NCBI GenBank assembly: GCA_964630695.1
Contig: CAZVYZ010000004.1
Coordinates: 2,787-66,786, forward strand
Length of the DNA stretch: 64,000 nt
Reading direction: 5' to 3'
Origin: an uncultured Ruminococcus sp.
GTDB lineage: Bacteria > Bacillota > Clostridia > Oscillospirales > CAG-272
Each line of letters opens with the position of its first letter. Within the stretch, counting starts at the first letter, position 1. Shown in pieces: positions 1 to 41,869 of this stretch. The notes under the pieces are model-generated. The model was not told the origin of the DNA and ran no database searches. It saw only the letters and a program-made list of their open reading frames with translations. Position numbers and translations under genes: made by a program.

Positions 1-98
1 AGTGCAAGAAAAAGTGCGAAAAAACCAATAAAATCAAGGGTTTTGGGGAGTTTGCTGTGATCAGAACGATAGTTTTTCAAGACCGCCTCGTTATGACC
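1..98. repeat. Direct repeat, copy 1 (98 nt, identical to 393..490); cut by the left window edge
   Basis: Base-by-base comparison shows 1..98 equals 393..490 with no mismatch. Similarity continues with mismatches to 114/506. Confidence 0.9.
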
Positions 99-114
99 AC
101 TTCGATATCCCTCC
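75..114 (-). pseudogene. tRNA-Ser(UGA)-like 5' half (acceptor 5' strand to anticodon loop), copy 1
   Basis: The minus strand reads GGAGGGA-TA-TCG-AAGTGGTCATAA-CGA-G-GCGGT-CTTGAAA. The next bases (AACTA) cannot pair with GCGGT. No T arm or 3' acceptor strand follows. Confidence 0.55.
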
Positions 115-265
115 GTATATGAACTGCCGTTCGGCAGATTTCATCGGATATTCATTTTTTTTAGAAATATTTTTAGAAATGCTGTTTTCGGTTGCTTTCG
201 GAGTGCCCGAAAAGTCAGTGTTTACAAGGCTTTTCCGAGTTTTTGCGTCTGCATTGCTCGCAAAT

Positions 266-305
266 TTTCAAGACCACCTCGTTATGACCGCTTCGATAAC
301 CCTCC
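266..305 (-). pseudogene. tRNA-Ser(UGA)-like 5' half, copy 2 (diverged)
   Basis: The minus strand reads GGAGGGT-TA-TCG-AAGCGGTCATAA-CGA-G-GTGGT-CTTGAAA, followed by the unrelated sequence ATTTG. Confidence 0.5.
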
Positions 306-354
306 GTGTATCAAACTGACCGAAAAGTCAGCAAATACCGAAATATGAAATTAA

Positions 355-390
355 GAAAATTGCGAGAAAACTGCGAGATGCCCATCTCGC
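355..390 (-). terminator. Possible intrinsic terminator of the copy-3 transcript
   Basis: The minus-strand hairpin GCGAGATG-GG-CATCTCGC (390..373) is followed by AGTTTTCTCGCAATTTTCTT. The loop is very small, so this call is weak. Confidence 0.3.
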
Positions 391-392
391 AA

Positions 393-490
393 AGTGCAAG
401 AAAAAGTGCGAAAAAACCAATAAAATCAAGGGTTTTGGGGAGTTTGCTGTGATCAGAACGATAGTTTTTCAAGACCGCCTCGTTATGACC
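393..490. repeat. Direct repeat, copy 2 (98 nt, identical to 1..98)
   Basis: Same comparison, with an offset of 392 nt. Confidence 0.9.
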
Positions 491-506
491 GCTTCGATAC
501 CTCTCC
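467..506 (-). pseudogene. tRNA-Ser(UGA)-like 5' half, copy 3 (promoter-proximal)
   Basis: The minus strand reads GGAGAGG-TA-TCG-AAGCGGTCATAA-CGA-G-GCGGT-CTTGAAA, followed by AACTA. A promoter lies 13 nt upstream. Confidence 0.55.
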
Positions 507-519
507 TTCAAGCCTTATC

Positions 520-548
520 ATTGTACCATAAAAAGATTTTTTTGTCAA
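520..548 (-). promoter_or_regulatory. Sigma-70-type promoter reading into tRNA-half copy 3
   Basis: On the minus strand, TTGACA (548..543) is followed by a 17-nt spacer and TACAAT (525..520). The -10 element ends 13 nt before the tRNA-like 5' end at 506. Confidence 0.6.
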
Positions 549-611
549 CCCCTTTTTGCGATTTCCTGTCTCTACATCTTTGTTTTTTATCTCCGATTTT
601 TCTTTTTTCGA

Positions 612-628
612 TTTACAAAGGATTTACA
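612..628 (+). promoter_or_regulatory. Candidate Pho box (two TTTACA direct repeats, 11-bp period) upstream of pstS
   Basis: TTTACA occurs at 612..617 and 623..628, about 45 bp upstream of a TATAAT at 672..677. This resembles the Bacillus PhoP TT(A/T/C)ACA repeats. Confidence 0.45.
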
Positions 629-704
629 CACGCAAAACCTCAGTATGGTAGTTGCAGGCGCGGAAATCTGCTATAATGTGCTTGCAAAACAAAAAAAGGA
701 GTGA

Positions 705-1646
705 TTGAAAATGAAAAGAAAGTTTGCAAAAGTTCTGTCGGTTCTGTTGTCCGGTTTGGTGTTGCTGTCCGCGGTGTCCTGCGGGAAGAAAGAAAAAAAC
801 ATCACGGTTGTGATTCGTGAGCAGGGAAGCGGTACACGCGAGGCTTTTGACACGGTCGTCACGGATGGGACGCACTTTCTGGAAGAAAAGGTTGACGGCA
901 AAAAGGTTTACCGCTCGACGCAAAATGCGGTAACACAGACCAAAACGGGCTTGGTCCTTTCCTCGGTCGCATCCGACAAAAATGCAATCGGGTACATCTC
1001 CCTCGGTTCCGTTGACGATACCGTCAATACGGTGCGGGTCGGCGGTGTTGCGGCGAGCGAGGCAACGGTTCTGGACGGCTCGTATGCCATTCAGCGACCT
1101 TTCGTGGTCATGACCAAAAAGGGTGTGACGATGACTGCCCGCGCGGCGGATTTCATGGCGTATCTGCACAGCGACGCGGCGGAGGCACACGCCAAGGAGG
1201 CGGGGTGCATCTGGCTTTCAGACCCGTCCAAACGCGCCAACGCAGGTGCCGAGCCGATTGCCGTGACCGATTTTACCAAGCAGGCGTCGGTTCCCGCAGG
1301 AGATAAAATTGTGATTCGCGGGTCGACCTCCATGGAAAAGGTCATCAATGCGGCGGCAAAGGGGTATGCCGAGGTTTACGGTGCGAATGCGGAGGACCTG
1401 TTCGACATTGAATTGGAGGGGTCTTCGGTCGGGCGCAAGGCGGTTGAAAACGACACGACCGGAAACGTCATCGGACTTTCCTCCGCGTCGGTGGCGCAGG
1501 ATAACATCAACAGTTTCAACCTGTGTCTGGATGCGGTTGCGGTGATTGTCAACAAGGACAACACCGAGATTACCGACATGACTCTGGAGCAATTGTATGC
1601 AATCTTCTCGGGAAGTGTTACGAAATTCAGCGCGCTGAGCAAATAA
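705..1646 (+). CDS. pstS: Phosphate ABC transporter substrate-binding lipoprotein PstS
   Basis: A signal peptide carries the lipobox LSAVSC. GSGTREAF and AIGYISLG motifs are present, and the gene is first in the pst operon. Confidence 0.85.
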   Translation: MKMKRKFAKVLSVLLSGLVLLSAVSCGKKEKNITVVIREQGSGTREAFDTVVTDGTHFLEEKVDGKKVYRSTQNAVTQTKTGLVLSSVASDKNAIGYISLGSVDDTVNTVRVGGVAASEATVLDGSYAIQRPFVVMTKKGVTMTARAADFMAYLHSDAAEAHAKEAGCIWLSDPSKRANAGAEPIAVTDFTKQASVPAGDKIVIRGSTSMEKVINAAAKGYAEVYGANAEDLFDIELEGSSVGRKAVENDTTGNVIGLSSASVAQDNINSFNLCLDAVAVIVNKDNTEITDMTLEQLYAIFSGSVTKFSALSK

Positions 1647-1647
1647 T

Positions 1648-3417
1648 ATGACGGCAAAAACGAAAGAACGGCTCGGGCAGGGACTGTTCGCAACAGCGGC
1701 GGTCCTCTGCGTGATTGCGGTGGTTGCGATTTTCGCATTCCTGATTGTTCGGAGTGTTCCCGCTTTCCGAAAAATCGGTATCGGAAATCTGCTTTTCGGT
1801 CGGAACTGGTCGCCTGACCGTCTGGACACCTACGGAGAGCCGCTGTCAGGCAGTTACGGAATTCTGACAATGGTCGTGGGAACCTTTGCGGCAACGCTCG
1901 GTGCCATGATAATCGGCGGGATGATTGGATTCTTTACGGCGGTCTTTCTCGTGTTCTGGTGTCCGAAACGGTTGCGCGGACCGCTCGGAACGGTGATTGA
2001 CCTGCTTGCGGGGATTCCCTCGGTGGTCTACGGATTCTTCGGAATCGCGTTTCTGCTTCCGATTCTGTCAGGAATTGCACCGAACAACGGAAGCGGACTG
2101 CTTGCGGTATCCCTGATTCTCGGGATTATGGTCCTGCCGACCGTGGTATCGCTCTCGCGCGTGGCGCTGGAAGCGGTTCCGAGGTCCTACTACGAAGGCT
2201 CGGTGGCGCTCGGTGCAACGCACGCGGAGACGGTATTCCGCGTGATGGTTCCGGCGGCAAGGTCCGGAATCCTTGCGTCGTTGGTTCTCGGGACGGGACG
2301 TGCGATGGGAGAAACGATGGCGGTTGTGATGGTTGCGGGAAACGCTGCGGCATTCCCGCAGGGGCTGTTCTCCTCATTCCGCGTCCTGACCGCAAATATC
2401 GTCATGGAGATGGGATACGCAGGTGAGGTTCAGGAGGGCGCGCTGATTGCCACCGGCGCGGTGCTTCTGGTTCTGGTACTCGGAGTCAATCTGCTGTTCG
2501 GCGCGGTTTCGGGGAAAGCGGTCCGCAAACTGAGCACAAACGGCAGGGCAACCCGCCGGAAAATGCCGTGGATTTCGCCCAAACTCGGTCGTGGATTCGC
2601 AATCGGTGCGGGGGGACTGACCGCGTCGGCACTCGTGCTGATTCTCGGGTTCATTTCGGTAAAGGGCTTGCCGGTTCTGATTCGGGACCCCTCCATTCTG
2701 TATGGTCCGTTTGCGTTCGGAAGCACCGACATCACCGTCCTCCCCGCGCTGATAACCACACTGTGGGCAGTGGCAATCAGCCTTGCGGTTGCAATCCCCG
2801 TCGGAATCATGACAGCGATTTTCCTGCACGAGTATGCGGGTCGGGACTGCCTCGCGGTCCGTATCATCCGCGGTGCAATCAACCTGTTGGCAGGTGTTCC
2901 GTCCATCGTCTACGGACTGTTCGGAATGATGACCTTTGTGCCGCTGTTCGGCGGTTCTGGAAGCATCCTTGCGGGGTCCCTGACCGTTTCCATGATGCTG
3001 TTGCCGACCGTTGTGCGGACAACGGAGGAAAGTCTGCGGACGGTTCCGGACGCGTTGCGGGAGGGGAGCCTTGCGCTCGGTGCGGGAAAGTTGCGGACGG
3101 TCTGCCATGTGGTTCTGCCGTCCGCACTCCCCGGGATTCTTTCGGCAGTCATTCTGTCGATCGGACGGGTCCTCGGGGAATCGGCGCCGTTCCTGTATAC
3201 GATGGGGTCGGTTATCAAAGCGATTCCGCACGGACCGCGTGACAGCGGCGCAACGCTTGCGGTGGCGTTGTATCAACTCTCGGGAGAGGGCTGGTATCTG
3301 GACGAAGCCTATGCAACCGCGGTCATTCTCGTTGCGTTGGTACTGATATTGAATCTCGCGGCGCGGAAGTGCGCGGCGGGACTCGGAAAGAAACAAAGAG
3401 GGGAATCTTATGGTTGA
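1648..3417 (+). CDS. Fused phosphate ABC permease PstC-PstA (589 aa)
   Basis: One ORF carries two permease EAA-type loops: [26 protein letters not shown] and [26 protein letters not shown]. It lies between pstS and pstB. Confidence 0.85.
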
Positions 3418-4225
3418 AGCAAAACGGCTTGTATGGAGAAGAGAGACAATTCGGGAAACAGAGGAAACCGTGGTCGGGCAGGACATTTCGGTCAGCGACG
3501 CGAACTTGTGGTACGGTAACTTTCAGGCGCTCCGCAGAGTCAGCATTGAAATTCCGGAGCGCAGTGTGACCGCGCTGATTGGTCCGTCGGGGTGCGGCAA
3601 GTCAACTTTTCTCAGGTGCCTGAACCGCATGAACGACCTCATGCCGAACTGTCGGACTGAGGGGCATTTTCTGGTCGGCGGGACCGATATTTACGGGCGG
3701 GTCGACCTGAATGCCCTGCGCCGTCGGGTCGGGATGGTATTCCAGAAGCCGAACCCGTTCCCGATGAGCGTATATGACAACGTTGCATACGGACCGAGGA
3801 CCGTCGGCATCCGCCGTCGGGCGGAATTGGACGAAATCGTGGAACGCTCCCTGCGGGCGGCGGCAATGTGGGAGGAAACGCGCGACTGCCTCGGGAAATC
3901 GGCACTCGGACTGTCGGGCGGGCAACAGCAACGGCTTTGCATCGCGCGGGCATTGGCGGTCAAACCGCAGATTCTGCTGATGGATGAACCGACCGCCGCT
4001 CTGGACCCGATTTCAACCGGAAAGATTGAGGAACTGTGCCGGGAATTGCGGAAAACCACAACCATTGTAATGGTTACACACAACATGCAACAGGCAACGC
4101 GTATCTCGGATTATACGGGTTTCTTCCTTTTGGGAGAGTTGATTGAAACGGGGACAACGGACCGGATTTTTCACGCTCCCACCGACCCGAGGACCGAGCG
4201 ATATGTAACGGGTAGTTTCGGCTGA
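3410..4225 (+). CDS. pstB: Phosphate ABC transporter ATP-binding protein PstB
   Basis: Walker [10 protein letters not shown], signature LSGGQQQR and Walker B LLMDEP are present. The start overlaps the permease stop (ATGGTTGA). The N-terminus is about 20 aa longer than usual, so the start is uncertain. Confidence 0.9.
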
Positions 4226-4232
4226 AAAAACT

Positions 4233-4286
4233 CTTGCAAATTCATCCGAAGTATGACTTGCAAATTCATCCGAAGTATGATATAAT
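4233..4286 (+). promoter_or_regulatory. Tandem 24-bp direct repeat plus a promoter for the response-regulator/kinase pair
   Basis: CTTGCAAATTCATCCGAAGTATGA occurs at 4233..4256 and again at 4257..4280. The second copy supplies TTGCAA (4258..4263), a 17-nt spacer and TATAAT (4281..4286). Confidence 0.6.
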
Positions 4287-4319
4287 AGCGTTAGAATAAT
4301 GCGAGCGGGGAGAGACGGA

Positions 4320-4994
4320 ATGAATAAGAAAATGATTTACGCGGTTGAGGATGACGAGGGAATCGGCGAGGTCTATCGCGGTGCGTTTGAGGAGGACTAC
4401 GATATTCGCCTGTTTGAGGACGGTCCCTCTTTTCTGGACGCGTTTCGCGCAGAAAAACCGGACATCGTAATTCTCGACATCATGCTTCCCGACATGGACG
4501 GCTACACGGTCCTGTCGGAAATCCGAAAACTCGACGAGCGGATTCCGGTTATCATCGTCAGTGCCAAGTCGGATGAAATCAGTTTTGTCAAAGGGCTGAA
4601 CAAGGGGGCGGACGACTATATTGCCAAACCGTTTTCCATTCTGGAACTGATGGCGCGGGTGAAAACCAACCTGCGGCGAGCCAACCTGTATGTTTCCGCA
4701 TCGGGTGGCTTTTCGGTCGACCGCAACACCTACCGCGCGTTTTATAACGGAAAAGACCTCGGGCTGACGCTCAAGGAGTACAAACTGCTTGCGCTTCTGC
4801 TCGGTCAGGCAGGTGTGACGATTGAACGGGATACGCTGTTCCGCTCGGTTTGGGGCGAGGACTATGTCGGGGAGACGCGCACGCTGGACATGCACATTGC
4901 AACATTGCGCGAGAAAATCAAGGAAGCGGGCGGCTATGACGCCATCGTGACGGTGAGAGGCATCGGCTACCGCTTTGAAACGAAACCGGAATGA
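4320..4994 (+). CDS. OmpR/PhoB-family response regulator
   Basis: The receiver domain shows DDE...D(ILDIMLPDMDG)...K, and a winged-helix C-terminus shows VRGIGYRF. The start was chosen at MNKKMIYAV because it follows a GGGGAGAG ribosome-binding site. The ORF opens at 4299. Confidence 0.85.
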   Translation: MNKKMIYAVEDDEGIGEVYRGAFEEDYDIRLFEDGPSFLDAFRAEKPDIVILDIMLPDMDGYTVLSEIRKLDERIPVIIVSAKSDEISFVKGLNKGADDYIAKPFSILELMARVKTNLRRANLYVSASGGFSVDRNTYRAFYNGKDLGLTLKEYKLLALLLGQAGVTIERDTLFRSVWGEDYVGETRTLDMHIATLREKIKEAGGYDAIVTVRGIGYRFETKPE

Positions 4995-6688
4995 GAAAAC
5001 GTATTTTTATCCGAATCCTGCTGCTGTCGCTGTTCTGCGTATTCACGGTGTTCGGCGCGGGCGCGATTGCGGTACGAAAAAGCGGAGATACCGCGGCGCG
5101 GGAGCGTTTACGGGCGGAGGTCGGTTTGCTGACAACGCTTTTGCGGACCGATACCGATTTTGAGGACGTAAAAGCATACGAAACGGATGGCACACTGCGC
5201 GTGACGTTGTTCCGTGCGGACGGAACGGTGCTGTTTGACAGCGGTCCCGCCGATGCGGACGAACAATTTGACGCGTGTGCCGAAATTTCGGCGGCATTGG
5301 CGGGTGAGCCGACGGTCACAAGCCGGTATTCGCAAGCCGCTGGAGCAGAGATGCTTTGCTATGCGGAAACGGTGGAGGCAGCAGAGGCAGGAGGCGGTGA
5401 CCGTTTGGTCATTCGCGTGATGTCACCGGAGCGGGAACGGACCGCGTTCGTTCGTGCGGCAGTCCCGTTTCTGATTGCGGCGGTGTTGGCGTCGCTTGCG
5501 CTGTCGGCAGTCTTTGCGGGCAGGATGTCAAAAGGATTTTCCGAACGGATCGAGGGCGTGGCGGAAAGCCTGCGGGCATTGGAAAACGGGGAATACAAAC
5601 CGATTGTCCCCGACCGACGGGAACCGGAATATGACTCGGTCATCTGGGAAATCAACGAACTGAACAAAAAGACCTACGCCATCATGCAGGCGCAGGTCGG
5701 AGAGCGCGAAAAACTGGCAACGGTACTTGACATCGTTGCACAGGGGATTGTCGCGCTGGATTCGGCGTTCCGCGTGGTATTCGCAAACCGAAGCGCGCTG
5801 AAACTGTTCGGCGGAGATGAGAAGAACATCGGCGCGGGGCTGTTTGGGCTGATTGAAGATGACGGGTTGTGCCGTCGGATTCATGAGTACGCAGGCGGCG
5901 GCAGTTTTGAATACCGCTATGGGGAACGCCAACTTGTGGTGACCCTGCGTGCCATTACAGACCACGCACTGGCACGGGAGATTGCGCAAATCGTGATTGT
6001 AACTGACGTAACCGACGCGCGGGATATTGCCAAAGAAAAGAGCGACTTCTTTGCCAACGCGTCACACGAACTGAAAACGCCGATTACCGTAACTTTGGGA
6101 CTCTCCGAATTGATTCTTGCCAAAGACGGTGTGGATGAGGGCATCCGCGCACAGGTAGAGCGGATTCACAAGGAAGCGTCCCGCATGTCCGAACTGATTA
6201 CCGATATGCTCCGTCTCTCACGGCTCGAACAGCACGGAGAGATTAAGCGGGAACCGGTCAATCTGCGCGCGATTGCGGACGAGGTGATAGCGGAACTGAA
6301 TCCGCGCATTGCCGAAAAGGGGCTGACCGTTGCGGTTTCCGGTGAGGGGACGGTTCATGCGGCACCCGAGCGGATTTACGAACTGCTGACCAACCTTTGC
6401 TCCAACGCGGTAAACTACAACGTGGACGGCGGGCATCTGGAAGTCGCGATTGCGGAACGGGACGGACACACGGTCCTGACGGTCCGCGATACCGGAATCG
6501 GAATTCCGAAAGAACACCTGTCCCGCGTTTGCGAGCGGTTCTATCGTGTGGATAAGTCCCGCTCCAAAAAGACCGGCGGAACCGGATTGGGGCTTGCCAT
6601 TGTCAAGCACATCTGCGTTCTCTACGGCGCGGAACTGAAGATTGAAAGCGTCGTCGGACAGGGAACTGTCGTAACGGTAACATTCTGA
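4991..6688 (+). CDS. PhoR-like sensor histidine kinase
   Basis: The protein has an N-terminal transmembrane segment, a second transmembrane segment, the H-box FFANASHELKTPIT, and HATPase N/G boxes (NAVNYN, DTGIGI, GGTGLGLAI). The start overlaps the response-regulator stop (ATGA). Confidence 0.85.
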   Translation: MRKRIFIRILLLSLFCVFTVFGAGAIAVRKSGDTAARERLRAEVGLLTTLLRTDTDFEDVKAYETDGTLRVTLFRADGTVLFDSGPADADEQFDACAEISAALAGEPTVTSRYSQAAGAEMLCYAETVEAAEAGGGDRLVIRVMSPERERTAFVRAAVPFLIAAVLASLALSAVFAGRMSKGFSERIEGVAESLRALENGEYKPIVPDRREPEYDSVIWEINELNKKTYAIMQAQVGEREKLATVLDIVAQGIVALDSAFRVVFANRSALKLFGGDEKNIGAGLFGLIEDDGLCRRIHEYAGGGSFEYRYGERQLVVTLRAITDHALAREIAQIVIVTDVTDARDIAKEKSDFFANASHELKTPITVTLGLSELILAKDGVDEGIRAQVERIHKEASRMSELITDMLRLSRLEQHGEIKREPVNLRAIADEVIAELNPRIAEKGLTVAVSGEGTVHAAPERIYELLTNLCSNAVNYNVDGGHLEVAIAERDGHTVLTVRDTGIGIPKEHLSRVCERFYRVDKSRSKKTGGTGLGLAIVKHICVLYGAELKIESVVGQGTVVTVTF

Positions 6689-11236: not shown

Positions 11237-12457
11237 ATGAATGAGACGATGAGAAAACTCGGGGCGGAGCGTTCCGCAATCCGTGAACTGTTTGAATACG
11301 GAAAGAAGCGAAGCGCTGAGATAGGCGCGGACCGCGTGTTTGACTTCAGCATCGGAAATCCGAGCGTTCCGACGCCGCCTGCCGTCACCGATGCGTTGAC
11401 CCGTCTATTGCGGGAATCCGACCCGACCGGACTTCACGGCTACACCTCCGCGCAGGGGGACCCCGACGCACGGCGCGCGATTGCCGCGCATCTGAACCGT
11501 ACTTACGGTGCCGATGCAGACCCCGACCGGATTTATCTCACGGCGGGTGCGGCAGCATCGCTGACCGTCAGTCTGAATGCGCTTCTGAATGCGGGGGACG
11601 AGGTCATTCTGTTGGCTCCGTTCTTTCCCGAATACCGCGTGTTCGTCGAGCGCGCAGGTGGGCGGGTCAAGGTCGTTCAGCCCGACTCCGAGACTTTTCT
11701 GCCGGATTTCGACGCGCTGGAGGCGGCAATCGGAGAGCGCACCCGCGCGCTGATTCTCAACTCGCCCAACAACCCGAGCGGTGCGATTCTGTCCGAGGAC
11801 GGCTTGCGGCGGCTTTGCGGGATTCTGGATGCCGCGCAGAAACGGTACGGGCATCCCGTGTGGTTGCTGTCGGACGAGCCTTACCGCGAGTTGGTCTGGG
11901 ACGGGAGCCGGATTCCGTTCGTCACGCAGTTCTACGGGAACAGTCTGGTGCTGTATTCCTACAGCAAGTCGCTCTCGCTCCCGGGGGAGCGCATCGGATA
12001 TATTCTGGTCTCCTCCCGCGCGCAGGACGCAAAGGGAATATACGAAGCAATCTGCGGGGCAGGGCGGGCGCTCGGATTCGTCTGTGCGCCGTCGCTGTTT
12101 CAGCATCTGCTGCCGGCATGTGCGGGACTATGCGCCGATTTCTCGGTCTACCGCACCAACCGCGCACTGTTGTACGAGGGCTTGACGGCGCTCGGCTTTG
12201 AGGCAGTCCGACCGCAGGGGGCGTTCTACCTGTTCCTGCGCGCACCCGAACCCGATGCAAAGCAATTTGCGGAGCGGGCAAAGGCGCACGAATTGCTGTT
12301 GGTCCCGTCCGACAGTTTCGGCATGGGCGGATATGTCCGCATTTCCTACTGCGTGCCGACCGAACGAATCCGCGGCGCACTTCCCGCGTTTGCGGAACTT
12401 GCGAGAATCTATAAACTGAAGCCGAAACTGAAACCGACCGAGGAAAAAAGAATATGA
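11237..12457 (+). CDS. Class I/II PLP-dependent aminotransferase (aromatic/aspartate type)
   Basis: The PLP-lysine context YSYSKSLSLPGERIGY and the NSPNNPSG motif are present. The gene leads the aro/phe/tyr cluster. Confidence 0.8.
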   Translation: MNETMRKLGAERSAIRELFEYGKKRSAEIGADRVFDFSIGNPSVPTPPAVTDALTRLLRESDPTGLHGYTSAQGDPDARRAIAAHLNRTYGADADPDRIYLTAGAAASLTVSLNALLNAGDEVILLAPFFPEYRVFVERAGGRVKVVQPDSETFLPDFDALEAAIGERTRALILNSPNNPSGAILSEDGLRRLCGILDAAQKRYGHPVWLLSDEPYRELVWDGSRIPFVTQFYGNSLVLYSYSKSLSLPGERIGYILVSSRAQDAKGIYEAICGAGRALGFVCAPSLFQHLLPACAGLCADFSVYRTNRALLYEGLTALGFEAVRPQGAFYLFLRAPEPDAKQFAERAKAHELLLVPSDSFGMGGYVRISYCVPTERIRGALPAFAELARIYKLKPKLKPTEEKRI

Positions 12458-13530
12458 ACACATTGGAAGAAGCAAGAGAGACAATCAACCGCGTGGACAG
12501 CGAAATGGCGAAACTGTTCACCGAACGGATGCGCGCCGCAGAGCAGGTCGCGGCTTACAAAAAGGAACACGGTCTGCCGATTACCGACGCGGAGCGGGAA
12601 GCGACCGTTGTCAGACACGGAGCAGAGAAAGTCGAGGACCCGATTCTGCGGGAGTATTATGTCCGTTTCATTCAGGAGACCATGGCGCTCTCCCGCGCGT
12701 ATCAGACCCGACTGCTCAACGGAATGCGGGTTTCCTACAGCGGGACCGAGGGGGCTTTTGCCCACATCGCAACGGAAAAACTCTTTCCGAGCGCCGAAAA
12801 AATCGGATTTCCGGATTTTGAAAGCGCTTACCGCGCGGTCGAGAGCGGAGACTGCGACGCGGCGGTCCTGCCCGTAGAGAACAGCACCAACGGCGAGGTG
12901 GGACAGGTGATGGACCTGATGTTTTCGGGCGGACTCTTCATCAACCGGATGTTGGACCTGCCCGTCACGCAGGATTTGCTCGCCAAACGCGGAACGGCGA
13001 TTGAGGAGATTCGGACGGTCATCAGTCACCCGCAGGCGCTCGGGCAATGCGCCGCACGGATTCGCGAAATGGGGTGGCAGACCGAGGAATATCCGAATAC
13101 CGCATTGGCGGCAAAATTTGTGGCGGGAACCAATGACCGCACGGTTGCGGCAATTGCAAGCGCCGAGGCGGCAGAGCGGTTCGGTCTTGCCGTACTGGAG
13201 CGGAATCTGAATGCAAGTCGCAGTAACACCACGCGGTTCGCGGTCTTTACAAGAGCCGAGAACACGCAGAGTAAGGGGACCTGCTCGGCGCTGATGTTCA
13301 CGGTCCGCAACGAGGCGGGCGCACTGGCGCGGGCGGTCGACGTCATCGGTCACTACGGATTCAATATGCGGACCCTGCGCAGTCGTCCCATGAAAGAACT
13401 GCTCTGGCAGTATTACTTCTACGTGGAGGCGGAGGGGGATTTGCACACGCCCGACGGGCAGAATATGCTCCGTGCGCTGTCGGTCTTTTGTGATAAACTG
13501 AAGCCGGTCGGCTGTTATACCGTTTCGTAA
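12454..13530 (+). CDS. pheA: Bifunctional chorismate mutase / prephenate dehydratase
   Basis: The N-terminal chorismate mutase helix (INRVDSEMAKLFTERMR) is followed by a prephenate dehydratase domain with a TRF motif (NTTRFAV) and a C-terminal ACT-like region. Confidence 0.85.
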   Translation: MNTLEEARETINRVDSEMAKLFTERMRAAEQVAAYKKEHGLPITDAEREATVVRHGAEKVEDPILREYYVRFIQETMALSRAYQTRLLNGMRVSYSGTEGAFAHIATEKLFPSAEKIGFPDFESAYRAVESGDCDAAVLPVENSTNGEVGQVMDLMFSGGLFINRMLDLPVTQDLLAKRGTAIEEIRTVISHPQALGQCAARIREMGWQTEEYPNTALAAKFVAGTNDRTVAAIASAEAAERFGLAVLERNLNASRSNTTRFAVFTRAENTQSKGTCSALMFTVRNEAGALARAVDVIGHYGFNMRTLRSRPMKELLWQYYFYVEAEGDLHTPDGQNMLRALSVFCDKLKPVGCYTVS

Positions 13531-41782: not shown

Positions 41783-41869
41783 GCCGGTATGATGGAATTG
41801 GCAGACGTGCTGGACTCAAAATCCAGTGGTAGCGATACCGTGTCGGTTCGACCCCGACTACCGGCACCA
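41783..41869 (+). tRNA. tRNA-Leu (anticodon CAA), class II with a long variable arm and encoded CCA
   Basis: Manual fold: acceptor GCCGGTA/TACCGGC, anticodon stem CTGGA/TCCAG with loop CTCAAAA, T arm GTCGG-TTCGACC-CCGAC, then ACCA. Confidence 0.9.

Follow-up and report, generated by a model that had tools for sequence, protein, structure and literature searches.

Why should a chromosome carry a row of tRNA 5′ halves, when the elements that integrate into tRNA genes usually leave 3′ fragments behind? The question is raised by a stretch of 64,000 nt from an uncultured Ruminococcus sp. (assembly GCA_964630695.1, contig CAZVYZ010000004.1), hereafter called the window, in which three 40-nt blocks resembling the 5′ half of tRNA-Ser(UGA) lie on the minus strand at 506→467 (half #3), 305→266 (half #2), and 114→75 (half #1). 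The initial annotation of this DNA took as its premise that integrases crossing over in the anticodon loop normally duplicate the 3′ part of the tRNA, and this is borne out by Islander, with 3760 islands having a displaced 3′ fragment and 159 having a 5′ fragment (PMC4383910). We surmise, at a probability of roughly nine in ten, that the array is a stack of left attachment junctions (attL) arising from serial, nested, site-specific integration of elements with tyrosine integrases. The apparent paradox of 5′ halves where 3′ fragments are expected is resolved by a mechanism described for mycobacteriophages in 2024.

The three blocks possess a common 34-nt core, which, with up to three mismatches allowed, is found three times in the 64-kb window and in none of 100 shuffles. 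The distances from start to start of consecutive halves are 201 and 191 nt; the positions and the recurrence of the blocks agree with those first reported. Each half is identical at 40 of 40 positions to the 5′ half of an intact tRNA-Ser(UGA) in three to nine other genomes. The likeness had been thought to stop immediately after the loop; a break at the loop stands, its exact point being one base further on, since the identity runs through A39 (CTTGAAAA), that is, CTTGAAA plus one base, and the break falls at position 38/39 or 39/40. The acceptor strands do differ, as had been noticed, but these differences reflect three different source tRNAs rather than decay, each half being identical throughout to a real tRNA elsewhere. 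The remainder of the tRNA is absent, again as claimed. ARAGORN called no tRNA, and none of the halves, in positions 1..700; the motifs for a T arm and for a loop with 3′ stem have zero matches across the whole window; and no tRNA-Ser of any anticodon is found in its 64 kb, where the sole tRNA gene is a tRNA-Leu(CAA) at 41783-41869, likewise the only one in an Rfam scan at the gathering threshold. The covariance-model scan that the initial annotation had named as a possible refutation reveals neither a tRNA nor any other credible Rfam family at E ≤ 10 in positions 1..1200. Formally this is negative for a partial tRNA; it is uninformative because intact tRNA-Ser(UGA) genes have 5′ halves that match each of the three in full.

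Upstream of half #3 lies a near-consensus promoter, TTGACA-17-TGgTACAAT (520..548, read 548→520 on the minus strand), which has 11 of 12 consensus matches together with a TG extension, and whose -10 box ends approximately 14 nt before the half. Judged from its sequence it is the native chromosomal promoter of the original tRNA-Ser(UGA) gene and would drive the first copy. The same flank occurs on a metagenome contig designated L153 (L numbers denote loci retrieved in this work), which is 99.1% identical to window positions 265-5717. The order in L153 is promoter, half #3, the segment that follows this half in the window (spacer A), an intact tRNA the 5′ half of which is half #2, a terminator, and a truncated integrase gene (int) of the kind associated with spacer A (A-type). 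The 3′ acceptor strand of this intact tRNA, ACCCTCC, pairs with half #2 and not with half #3. Colinearity between L153 and the window stops at position 265, which is the last base of CTTGAAAA and the edge of the loop, and the window then continues with a different segment, spacer B. L153 is the unoccupied target for the B-type insertion, which was placed at the anticodon loop; the search for an empty site in related genomes, suggested at the outset, was in this way successful.

The three halves can accordingly be given probable origins. Half #3 (467..506, minus strand; GGAGAGG...CTTGAAA), which matches the 5′ halves of intact tRNAs at nine other loci at 40 of 40 positions and is followed by spacer A, appears to stem from the original tRNA-Ser(UGA) gene of the chromosome, of which it would be the 5′ half left when an A-type element split the gene, and would form the core side of attL. 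Half #2 (266..305, minus strand; GGAGGGT...GGTGGTCTTGAAA), the sequence of which continues as an intact tRNA in L153, is probably the 5′ half of a tRNA-Ser(UGA) brought by the A-type element and later split by a B-type element. Half #1 (75..114, minus strand; GGAGGGA...AAGTGG...CTTGAAA), with 40 of 40 matches at seven loci, would be the 5′ half of the tRNA brought by the B-type element and split by a second A-type element. In locus L004, the 38 nt upstream of half #1 are the same as in the window and are followed by a complete tRNA-Ser(UGA).

One genome per species was scanned for two anticodon-arm motifs situated 165-195 nt apart, which gave at least 120 matches. One of these (L052) is a false positive in a coding region, leaving at least 119 real arrays; the counts given here and below are among the matches listed. 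All of the taxa are gut or rumen Clostridia (Oscillospiraceae, Saccharofermentans, and metagenome-assembled genomes assigned to 'Eubacteriales'). When copies were classed by the presence of a T arm downstream as half (H) or intact (I), the array types, with L052 counted in, were HI (81), HHI (11), HHHI (4), HH (20), HHH (3), and HHHH (1). In 96 arrays the last spacer leads to one intact tRNA-Ser(UGA), while those consisting of halves only are located at contig ends. The orders II and IH are absent from the at least 119 arrays listed, and the search pattern did not dictate that halves should precede the intact copy. A promoter with at least 10 of 12 consensus matches is present upstream of the first copy in 58 of 119 arrays and upstream of later copies in 11 of 143 cases (Fisher p = 2e-14). 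A homologue search and its contigs yielded the additional arrays L154 (HHHI), L159 (HI), and L165 (HI). A 24-nt piece of the block is also found in 22 IMG/VR contigs, always within an intact tRNA-Ser(UGA) of 87-94 nt called by ARAGORN; these, with L004 among them, are ordinary intact genes in phages or prophage flanks. In four loci (L037, L047, L048, and L084) the tRNA-likeness of the first 'half' is limited to the anticodon arm (e.g., TTCGGGCACCGCAACAGGACATAACGAGGCGGTCTTGAAA), and these copies are either heavily decayed halves or integrations at secondary sites resembling the attachment site of an element (attP). Locus L017 presents a contrast to the 5′-half arrays: at ~1010-1150 a duplicated 3′ end (ATCCCACCCTCTCCGCCA) lies ~110 nt past an intact tRNA-Ser(UGA), the classical 3′-fragment footprint.

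Directly downstream of the intact tRNA, and convergent with it, lies an open reading frame (ORF) of ~400 amino acid residues. Homologous tyrosine integrases account for 31 of 35 such minus-strand ORFs (those of at least 300 residues), and their representatives possess PF00589 together with SAM-like N-domains. At the 35 loci with at least 2.5 kb of downstream sequence, a full-length int is found in 15 and a fragment in 5, within ~1.2 kb. The family to which the last spacer belongs predicts the cluster of the integrase: family 0 with cluster 0 in 17 of 17 cases, family 1 (spacer B) with cluster 2 in 3 of 3, and family 2 (spacer A) with cluster 1 in 7 of 8. Furthermore, L039, L063, and L107 differ in their chromosomal promoters but agree in spacer A, in the intact tRNA with its 3′ half, and in int. 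Integrase-based scans of IMG/VR revealed almost no close relatives.

That the elements deliver a whole tRNA gene is evident from the acceptor strands, the orphan 3′ halves, and the empty-site contig L153. Among 64 arrays in which some half has an acceptor strand other than that of the intact gene, there are 63 whose intact gene shows 7/7 pairing between its own two acceptor strands, and a differing upstream half would pair 7/7 with the 3′ strand in only one of 71 cases, which rules out elements that bring a 5′ half alone and reuse the chromosomal 3′ half. Orphan 3′ halves are present in L039 and L055, 0.35-0.8 kb beyond the intact gene, where the element bodies are mostly deleted; upstream of each lie a truncated int and non-tRNA DNA. 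In L039 the right junction (attR) reads ...cgtttcgttcGAAAA joined to CCGTTTGGGGGCAACCCCACAAGGGTTCGAATCCCTTCCTCTCCGCCA, its acceptor strand being complementary to the first half of the same array (GGAGAGG), and the chromosomal genes beyond it are alaS and rpoB. In L055 it reads ...aaaacTTGAAAA joined to CCGTTTGGG...CGCCTGCGCCA, again complementary to the first half of its own array (GCAGGCG). These attR junctions share just GAAAA or CTTGAAAA with the tRNA, and at attL the tRNA identity ends at CTTGAAA(A), or 2 nt later in family 0. Since the orphan 3′ halves match the first halves, the original gene was split at the loop, with ~5-8 bp in common at the other junction. The initial annotation had offered, among other readings, the scars of serial integration and excision by elements carrying the 5′ half; serial integration at the loop is retained, with the amendments that the elements carry a whole tRNA and that no excision is needed. 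In L039 (968-1288, oriented), L055 (~5000-5740, oriented), and L153 (past the intact tRNA), int is often truncated and the body deleted, the tRNA and the attL arm being kept, which is consistent with selection retaining the tRNA after the death of the element.

The same data bear on a variant of the conventional island model, in which the element brings a 5′ half with its upstream DNA, this becomes joined to a constant chromosomal 3′ half, and the old 5′ half is left behind. Such islands of reversed orientation would likewise line up 5′ halves with a single intact gene at the end, and the 159 islands with a displaced 5′ fragment in Islander (PMC4383910) represent a rare class of this kind. On this model the 3′ strand of the intact gene ought to be complementary to the first half, but this is the case in the single instance of 71 mentioned above, while the strands of the intact gene pair with each other in 63 of 64 arrays; orphan 3′ halves matching the first half exist; the 3′ half of the intact gene moves with spacer and int between chromosomal contexts; and the 3′ half in L153 (ACCCTCC) pairs with half #2 and not with the chromosomal half #3. 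The variant is already contradicted by these findings, and we consider it very improbable.

Spacer A (306..466, minus strand; 161 nt) belongs to spacer family 2, which has 21 members in other genomes, with near-identical copies in L038, L039, L063, L107, and L153; it is predicted to be the attL-proximal arm of the A-type element, extending from the crossover point to the tRNA of the element. Spacer B (115..265, minus strand; 151 nt) belongs to family 1, with 30 members, and would be the corresponding arm of the B-type element. Positions 1..74 (minus strand) are the start of a second A-type spacer, so that the array continues past the edge of the window. These 74 nt, downstream of half #1, are identical to 393-466, downstream of half #3, but half #2 is followed by different sequence; the array is thus an A-B-A composite with a period of 392 nt. 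By analogy with L039, L063, and L107, a further ~87 nt of spacer, an intact tRNA-Ser(UGA), a terminator, and a convergent integrase gene are expected to the left of position 1.

Approximately 20 unrelated families of spacer sequence were recognized. All have a common layout: ~20-30 variable nt, an A-run, a hairpin, a T-run, and a pair of direct repeats specific to the family. Exact repeats of at least 8 nt at a spacing of 9-24 nt are found in 76 of 142 spacers, where ~5 are expected from shuffling; in 70 of these 76 the spacing is 11-13 nt, and the median start of the first copy, across families, is +85 nt relative to the junction. In spacer A, a repeat search revealed tandem 11-nt direct repeats, CGCAGTTTTCT and CGCAATTTTCT, at 354..375 (minus strand), which overlap a hairpin at 392→371; in spacer B there are two exact copies of ATTTCTAAAAA, 12 nt apart, at 158..180 (minus strand). 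The position, periodicity, and family-specificity of these repeats fit arm-type binding sites, and we infer that those in spacer A are likely sites for the A-type integrase and the ATTTCTAAAAA pair likely sites for the B-type integrase. No match to 30-mers from spacers A and B was found in IMG/VR, nor did blastn of the array against GenBank phages give any.

A single disruption of a tRNA-Ser gene, followed by local tandem duplication of the fragment and its flank, was another reading put forward in the initial annotation. The identity of the 74 bases downstream of halves #1 and #3, and the composite period of 392 nt, would suit such a duplication, and for the second A unit alone it could still account. 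As an explanation for the array as a whole it is highly unlikely: spacers A and B belong to different families, which elsewhere are linked to different integrase families; the acceptor strands of the three halves differ from one another, and each is that of a real tRNA in another genome; and L153 represents an intermediate state in which half #2 is intact.

The halves decay. Substitutions in the D-arm consensus, scored outside the part fixed by the search pattern, occur in 21 of 166 halves and in 0 of 96 intact genes (Fisher p = 6e-5), and 20 of the 21 substituted halves are the first, and hence oldest, copy. This argues that the halves are relics and speaks against a selected tRNA-like function. 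As long as the element is alive, they may still act as attL cores in excision. The contrary proposal, that the halves are functional RNAs acting as tRNA-half regulators, as decoys for anticodon nucleases, or as the 5′ pieces of a split tRNA assembled in trans, draws on the very strong promoter before the first half and on the good conservation of the anticodon arm in the retrieved copies. That conservation was, however, imposed by the search pattern, outside of which the halves have accumulated the substitutions just described, and the spacers of different families are unrelated save for the attachment-arm layout. In split tRNAs of the Nanoarchaeum type, the 5′ and 3′ halves are separate genes, are the only source of the tRNA, and are joined via complementary flanks. 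Here an intact gene with the same anticodon closes every complete array among the matches listed, in which complementary flanks were not searched for. We regard functional RNAs as most improbable, and incidental transcripts from the halves as likely. An assembly artefact, in which a graph assembler was misthreaded through the 40-nt repeats of several tRNA-Ser genes, might be suspected from the window beginning within the array and from the contig of this locus in Logan breaking within half #3, but is the least credible of all, given that the same junctions of half and spacer recur in more than 100 independent assemblies from different pipelines, that the A-B-A (L039), B-A (L038), and one-step-earlier (L153) states are all seen, and that junction k-mers must be present in the reads. 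The regular spacing also brought to mind a group I or other intron, and a CRISPR-like or type III antitoxin array. Both were dropped, since a 3′ exon is missing downstream and the spacers form unrelated families with attachment-arm features.

Serial, nested integration, as we envisage it, would proceed as follows. The tyrosine integrase would recombine the 7-nt anticodon loop CTTGAAA, give or take 1-2 nt, with the loop of a resident tRNA-Ser(UGA), the element sharing ~7-9 bp with its target. As attP has no further tRNA homology, the gene would not be rebuilt, and its 5′ and 3′ halves would each be orphaned. The element would compensate with a complete tRNA-Ser(UGA) gene, ~140-160 nt inside attL and in the orientation of the disrupted gene, the order being junction, arm, tRNA, terminator, in some families an HTH_17 gene, and convergent int. 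The arm would hold the hairpin and the pair of family-specific direct repeats of 8-12 nt at ~+85 nt, probably arm-type sites. The delivered tRNA becomes the new chromosomal attachment site (attB) at which the next element lands, so that 5′ halves would pile up one spacer (~190-200 nt) apart, and the 3′ halves would be pushed outward to the far side, one per element body. For the window this suggests that an A-type element entered the chromosomal gene (half #3, with the native promoter) and delivered the tRNA of half #2; that a B-type element entered the latter and delivered that of half #1; and that a second A-type element entered this in turn, its own tRNA lying to the left of position 1. The alternative is a single arrival, in one step, of a composite in which the A[B[A]] nesting was already present. 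Catalysis would be due to the adjoining integrases. The delivered tRNA, on which the host would presumably depend, could be expressed by read-through from the host promoter and RNase P processing, or from weak internal promoters.

Several observations weigh against this account. The window ends inside the array and shows neither the intact tRNA-Ser(UGA) nor any integrase or element body; these, together with the three 3′ halves predicted, would lie to the left of position 1. The elements outrun the stretches of 8-14 kb covered, in which none shows attL together with a clean attR, and both of the attR junctions observed belong to decayed elements. The A-B-A order is also found behind a different promoter in L039, whereby three separate events in this lineage are unproven and a composite may have moved. 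Most spacers are devoid of a near-consensus sigma-70 promoter (the 11 of 143 given above), and some contain terminator-like hairpins.

As to the nature of the elements, the genes near int in B-type and cluster-0 elements specify HTH_17 (excisionase-like), a MobA/VirD2 relaxase (PF03432), MobC/NikA, AAA_25, and an S24 repressor. Among those of B type, L132 and L154 possess int and HTH_17, with the relaxase in L132. Genes for capsid, tail, or terminase are absent from up to 10 kb beside int in L132, L029, L159, L164, and L165. The elements examined look like integrative mobilizable elements (IMEs), which have their own module for integration and excision together with relaxase and oriT functions but lack a conjugative pore, rather than like temperate phages; int, HTH_17, relaxase, and MobC are present in the parts recovered of the B-type and cluster-0 elements. 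The A-type element in L063 carries int, HTH_17, a sigma-r4 protein, M78, a Y-family polymerase, and S24, and its carrier type is undecided. Anti-phage cargo beside the arrays includes DndC/D/E with GmrSD (L159/L160, 1-4900) and TIR-SEFIR, PARG, and HsdR (L164, 1-5600), and PRTase-CE, an ORC/CDC6-like protein, and an N6 methylase are found in L165 (1-5900). On the minus strand of L164, at ~6170, the AAA_25 gene is separated from the defence genes by GGCGGTCTTGAAAA joined to CTGCAAAGGCAAAACCACTTTGGTTCGAAT. This junction resembles a decayed attR, its 3′ half being degenerate, and possibly marks the boundary of two accreted elements. The B-type upstream flank also precedes an intact tRNA-Ser(UGA) in L004 (1988-6896, minus strand), where the element that comes next carries three large serine recombinases in tandem and is thus a different kind of element adjoining the same tRNA. 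A large serine recombinase as the inserting enzyme, suggested by L004, was dropped, since the tyrosine integrases are the consistent neighbour and co-vary with the spacer.

A second isoacceptor is involved as well. In contigs from human faecal viromes, integrases 42-44% identical to the A-type enzyme adjoin tRNA-Ser(CGA), and half-half-intact arrays ending in CTCGAAA are found in L145 (MT839038, ~1500-2000) and L146 (MT836101, ~12380-13000). Contig L147 (MT836946) is attP-like at ~4410-4600, where non-tRNA DNA is followed by CTCGAAAT, a spacer with two copies of GAGTTCTCCCCA, an intact tRNA-Ser(CGA), and int; the tRNA sequence shared is the loop heptamer CTCGAAA alone.

Within the window, the chromosomal flank outside the elements is marked by pstS (711..1646, plus strand; PF12849), which specifies a phosphate-binding protein, is divergent from the tRNA promoter, and is colinear with L153. 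The Logan contig that ends within half #3 carries this gene too. For the ORF at 119-316, an exact-protein search gave no recorded match. Further downstream of pstS, at 4233-4280, there is a perfect tandem duplication of 24 nt (CTTGCAAATTCATCCGAAGTATGA) between ORFs 3410-4225 and 4299-4994.

Sublocation classes of integration into tDNA are reportedly treated by Williams (2002). Classical tDNA islands and prophages, as recorded in Islander (PMC4383910), share with the present elements the tyrosine integrase, a loop-centred crossover ('A' sites), int beside an intact tRNA, and tandem arrays at one tDNA. In them, attP contains a 3′ (rarely a 5′) part of the tRNA that regenerates the gene, and one displaced fragment marks the far end, whereas in the present arrays displacement affects both halves, and the intact gene stands ~150 nt away as a whole unit of its own. 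Islander filters require an integrase between fragment and tDNA, and would reject the 150-nt intervals seen here. In Streptococcus, accretion of IMEs and of integrative and conjugative elements also places several elements at one attachment site (PMC5704250, PMC5357655), and they may move as composites, which would explain the same A-B-A order behind two promoters; there the elements lie side by side via a regenerated site, whereas here the newcomer is nested inside the tRNA of the previous element.

The closest parallel is the tRNA-dependent lysogeny of the actinobacteriophages Fionnbharth, LeBron, Gaia, and others (Guerrero-Bustamante & Hatfull, mBio 2024, PMC10865867). In these a tyrosine integrase uses an attB in a tRNA gene, the core of 8-17 bp starts at the loop, the tRNA is not reconstructed, and a phage-borne cognate tRNA is essential for survival of the lysogen, a mechanism shown by experiment. 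Common to both systems are the tyrosine integrase at an attB inside a tRNA gene that is not rebuilt, an element-borne tRNA of the same isotype, and paired arm-type repeats flanking the core, which are sites in the phages and are here predicted from repeats. Integration at tDNA is represented here by the loop insertion between L153 and the window and by PF00589 integrases in relatives, to which catalysis would be ascribed; the short core by CTTGAAA(A) at attL, GAAAA or CTTGAAAA at attR, CTCGAAA in L147, and halves uncalled by ARAGORN; and the replacement by the intact tRNA-Ser(UGA) in 96 arrays, which co-varies with spacer and int. The differences are that the hosts here are gut Clostridia and the targets tRNA-Ser(UGA) and tRNA-Ser(CGA) rather than Lys, Leu, and Ile2; that the elements examined possess relaxase, MobC, and AAA_25 without phage genes, so that the term lysogeny does not apply to such mobilizable carriers; and that the replacement tRNA is part of the attL arm, points the same way as the disrupted gene, and lies behind the host promoter, at a fixed distance of ~150 nt. 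This fixed placement, combined with repeated nested integration, leads to regular 5′-half arrays. Cases beyond the actinobacteriophages were anticipated (PMC10865867), with citation of Lactobacillus johnsonii prophage Lj965. As cited there, Lj965 is likewise a Firmicutes element that encodes a cognate tRNA and does not rebuild its target, but figures as a possible case, a single prophage with no arrays. Later literature mentions tRNA-dependent lysogeny in Sinorhizobium prophages. In the literature as covered, which is incomplete, there is no description of such a system in Clostridia, in mobilizable elements, or as stacked 5′-half arrays. The mechanism is known from the 2024 phage work; new here are the host clade, the isoacceptor, the carrier type, the fixed placement of the tRNA, and the nested stacking.

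These findings extend the mechanism beyond phages to mobilizable elements carrying defence genes, in well over a hundred species of gut Clostridia and at two serine isoacceptors. Programs for finding islands, where they look for a regenerated tRNA and one displaced fragment, will miss or mis-delimit such elements, tRNA annotators do not report the halves, and the arrays break short-read assemblies, as at the edge of the window. The stacks are an ordered record of successive invasions and suggest a tRNA-based retention (addiction) mechanism for mobile elements. A broader proposal, which we offer tentatively and hold to be somewhat less probable than its opposite, is that in much of the gut Clostridia the working tRNA-Ser(UGA), and in some also the tRNA-Ser(CGA), is the copy of a mobilizable element, maintained by an addiction ratchet in which the element splits the gene, supplies its own, and captures the host tRNA promoter. 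If this were true, imprecise loss of an element would be lethal unless its tRNA stayed behind, and the tRNA and attL arm would outlive the element; the fixed position and orientation of the tRNA, ~150 nt behind a strong host promoter, together with the scarcity of good promoters in the spacers, would mean that elements capture the promoter of the host; and each row of 5′ halves could be read, in order, as the history of past invasions.

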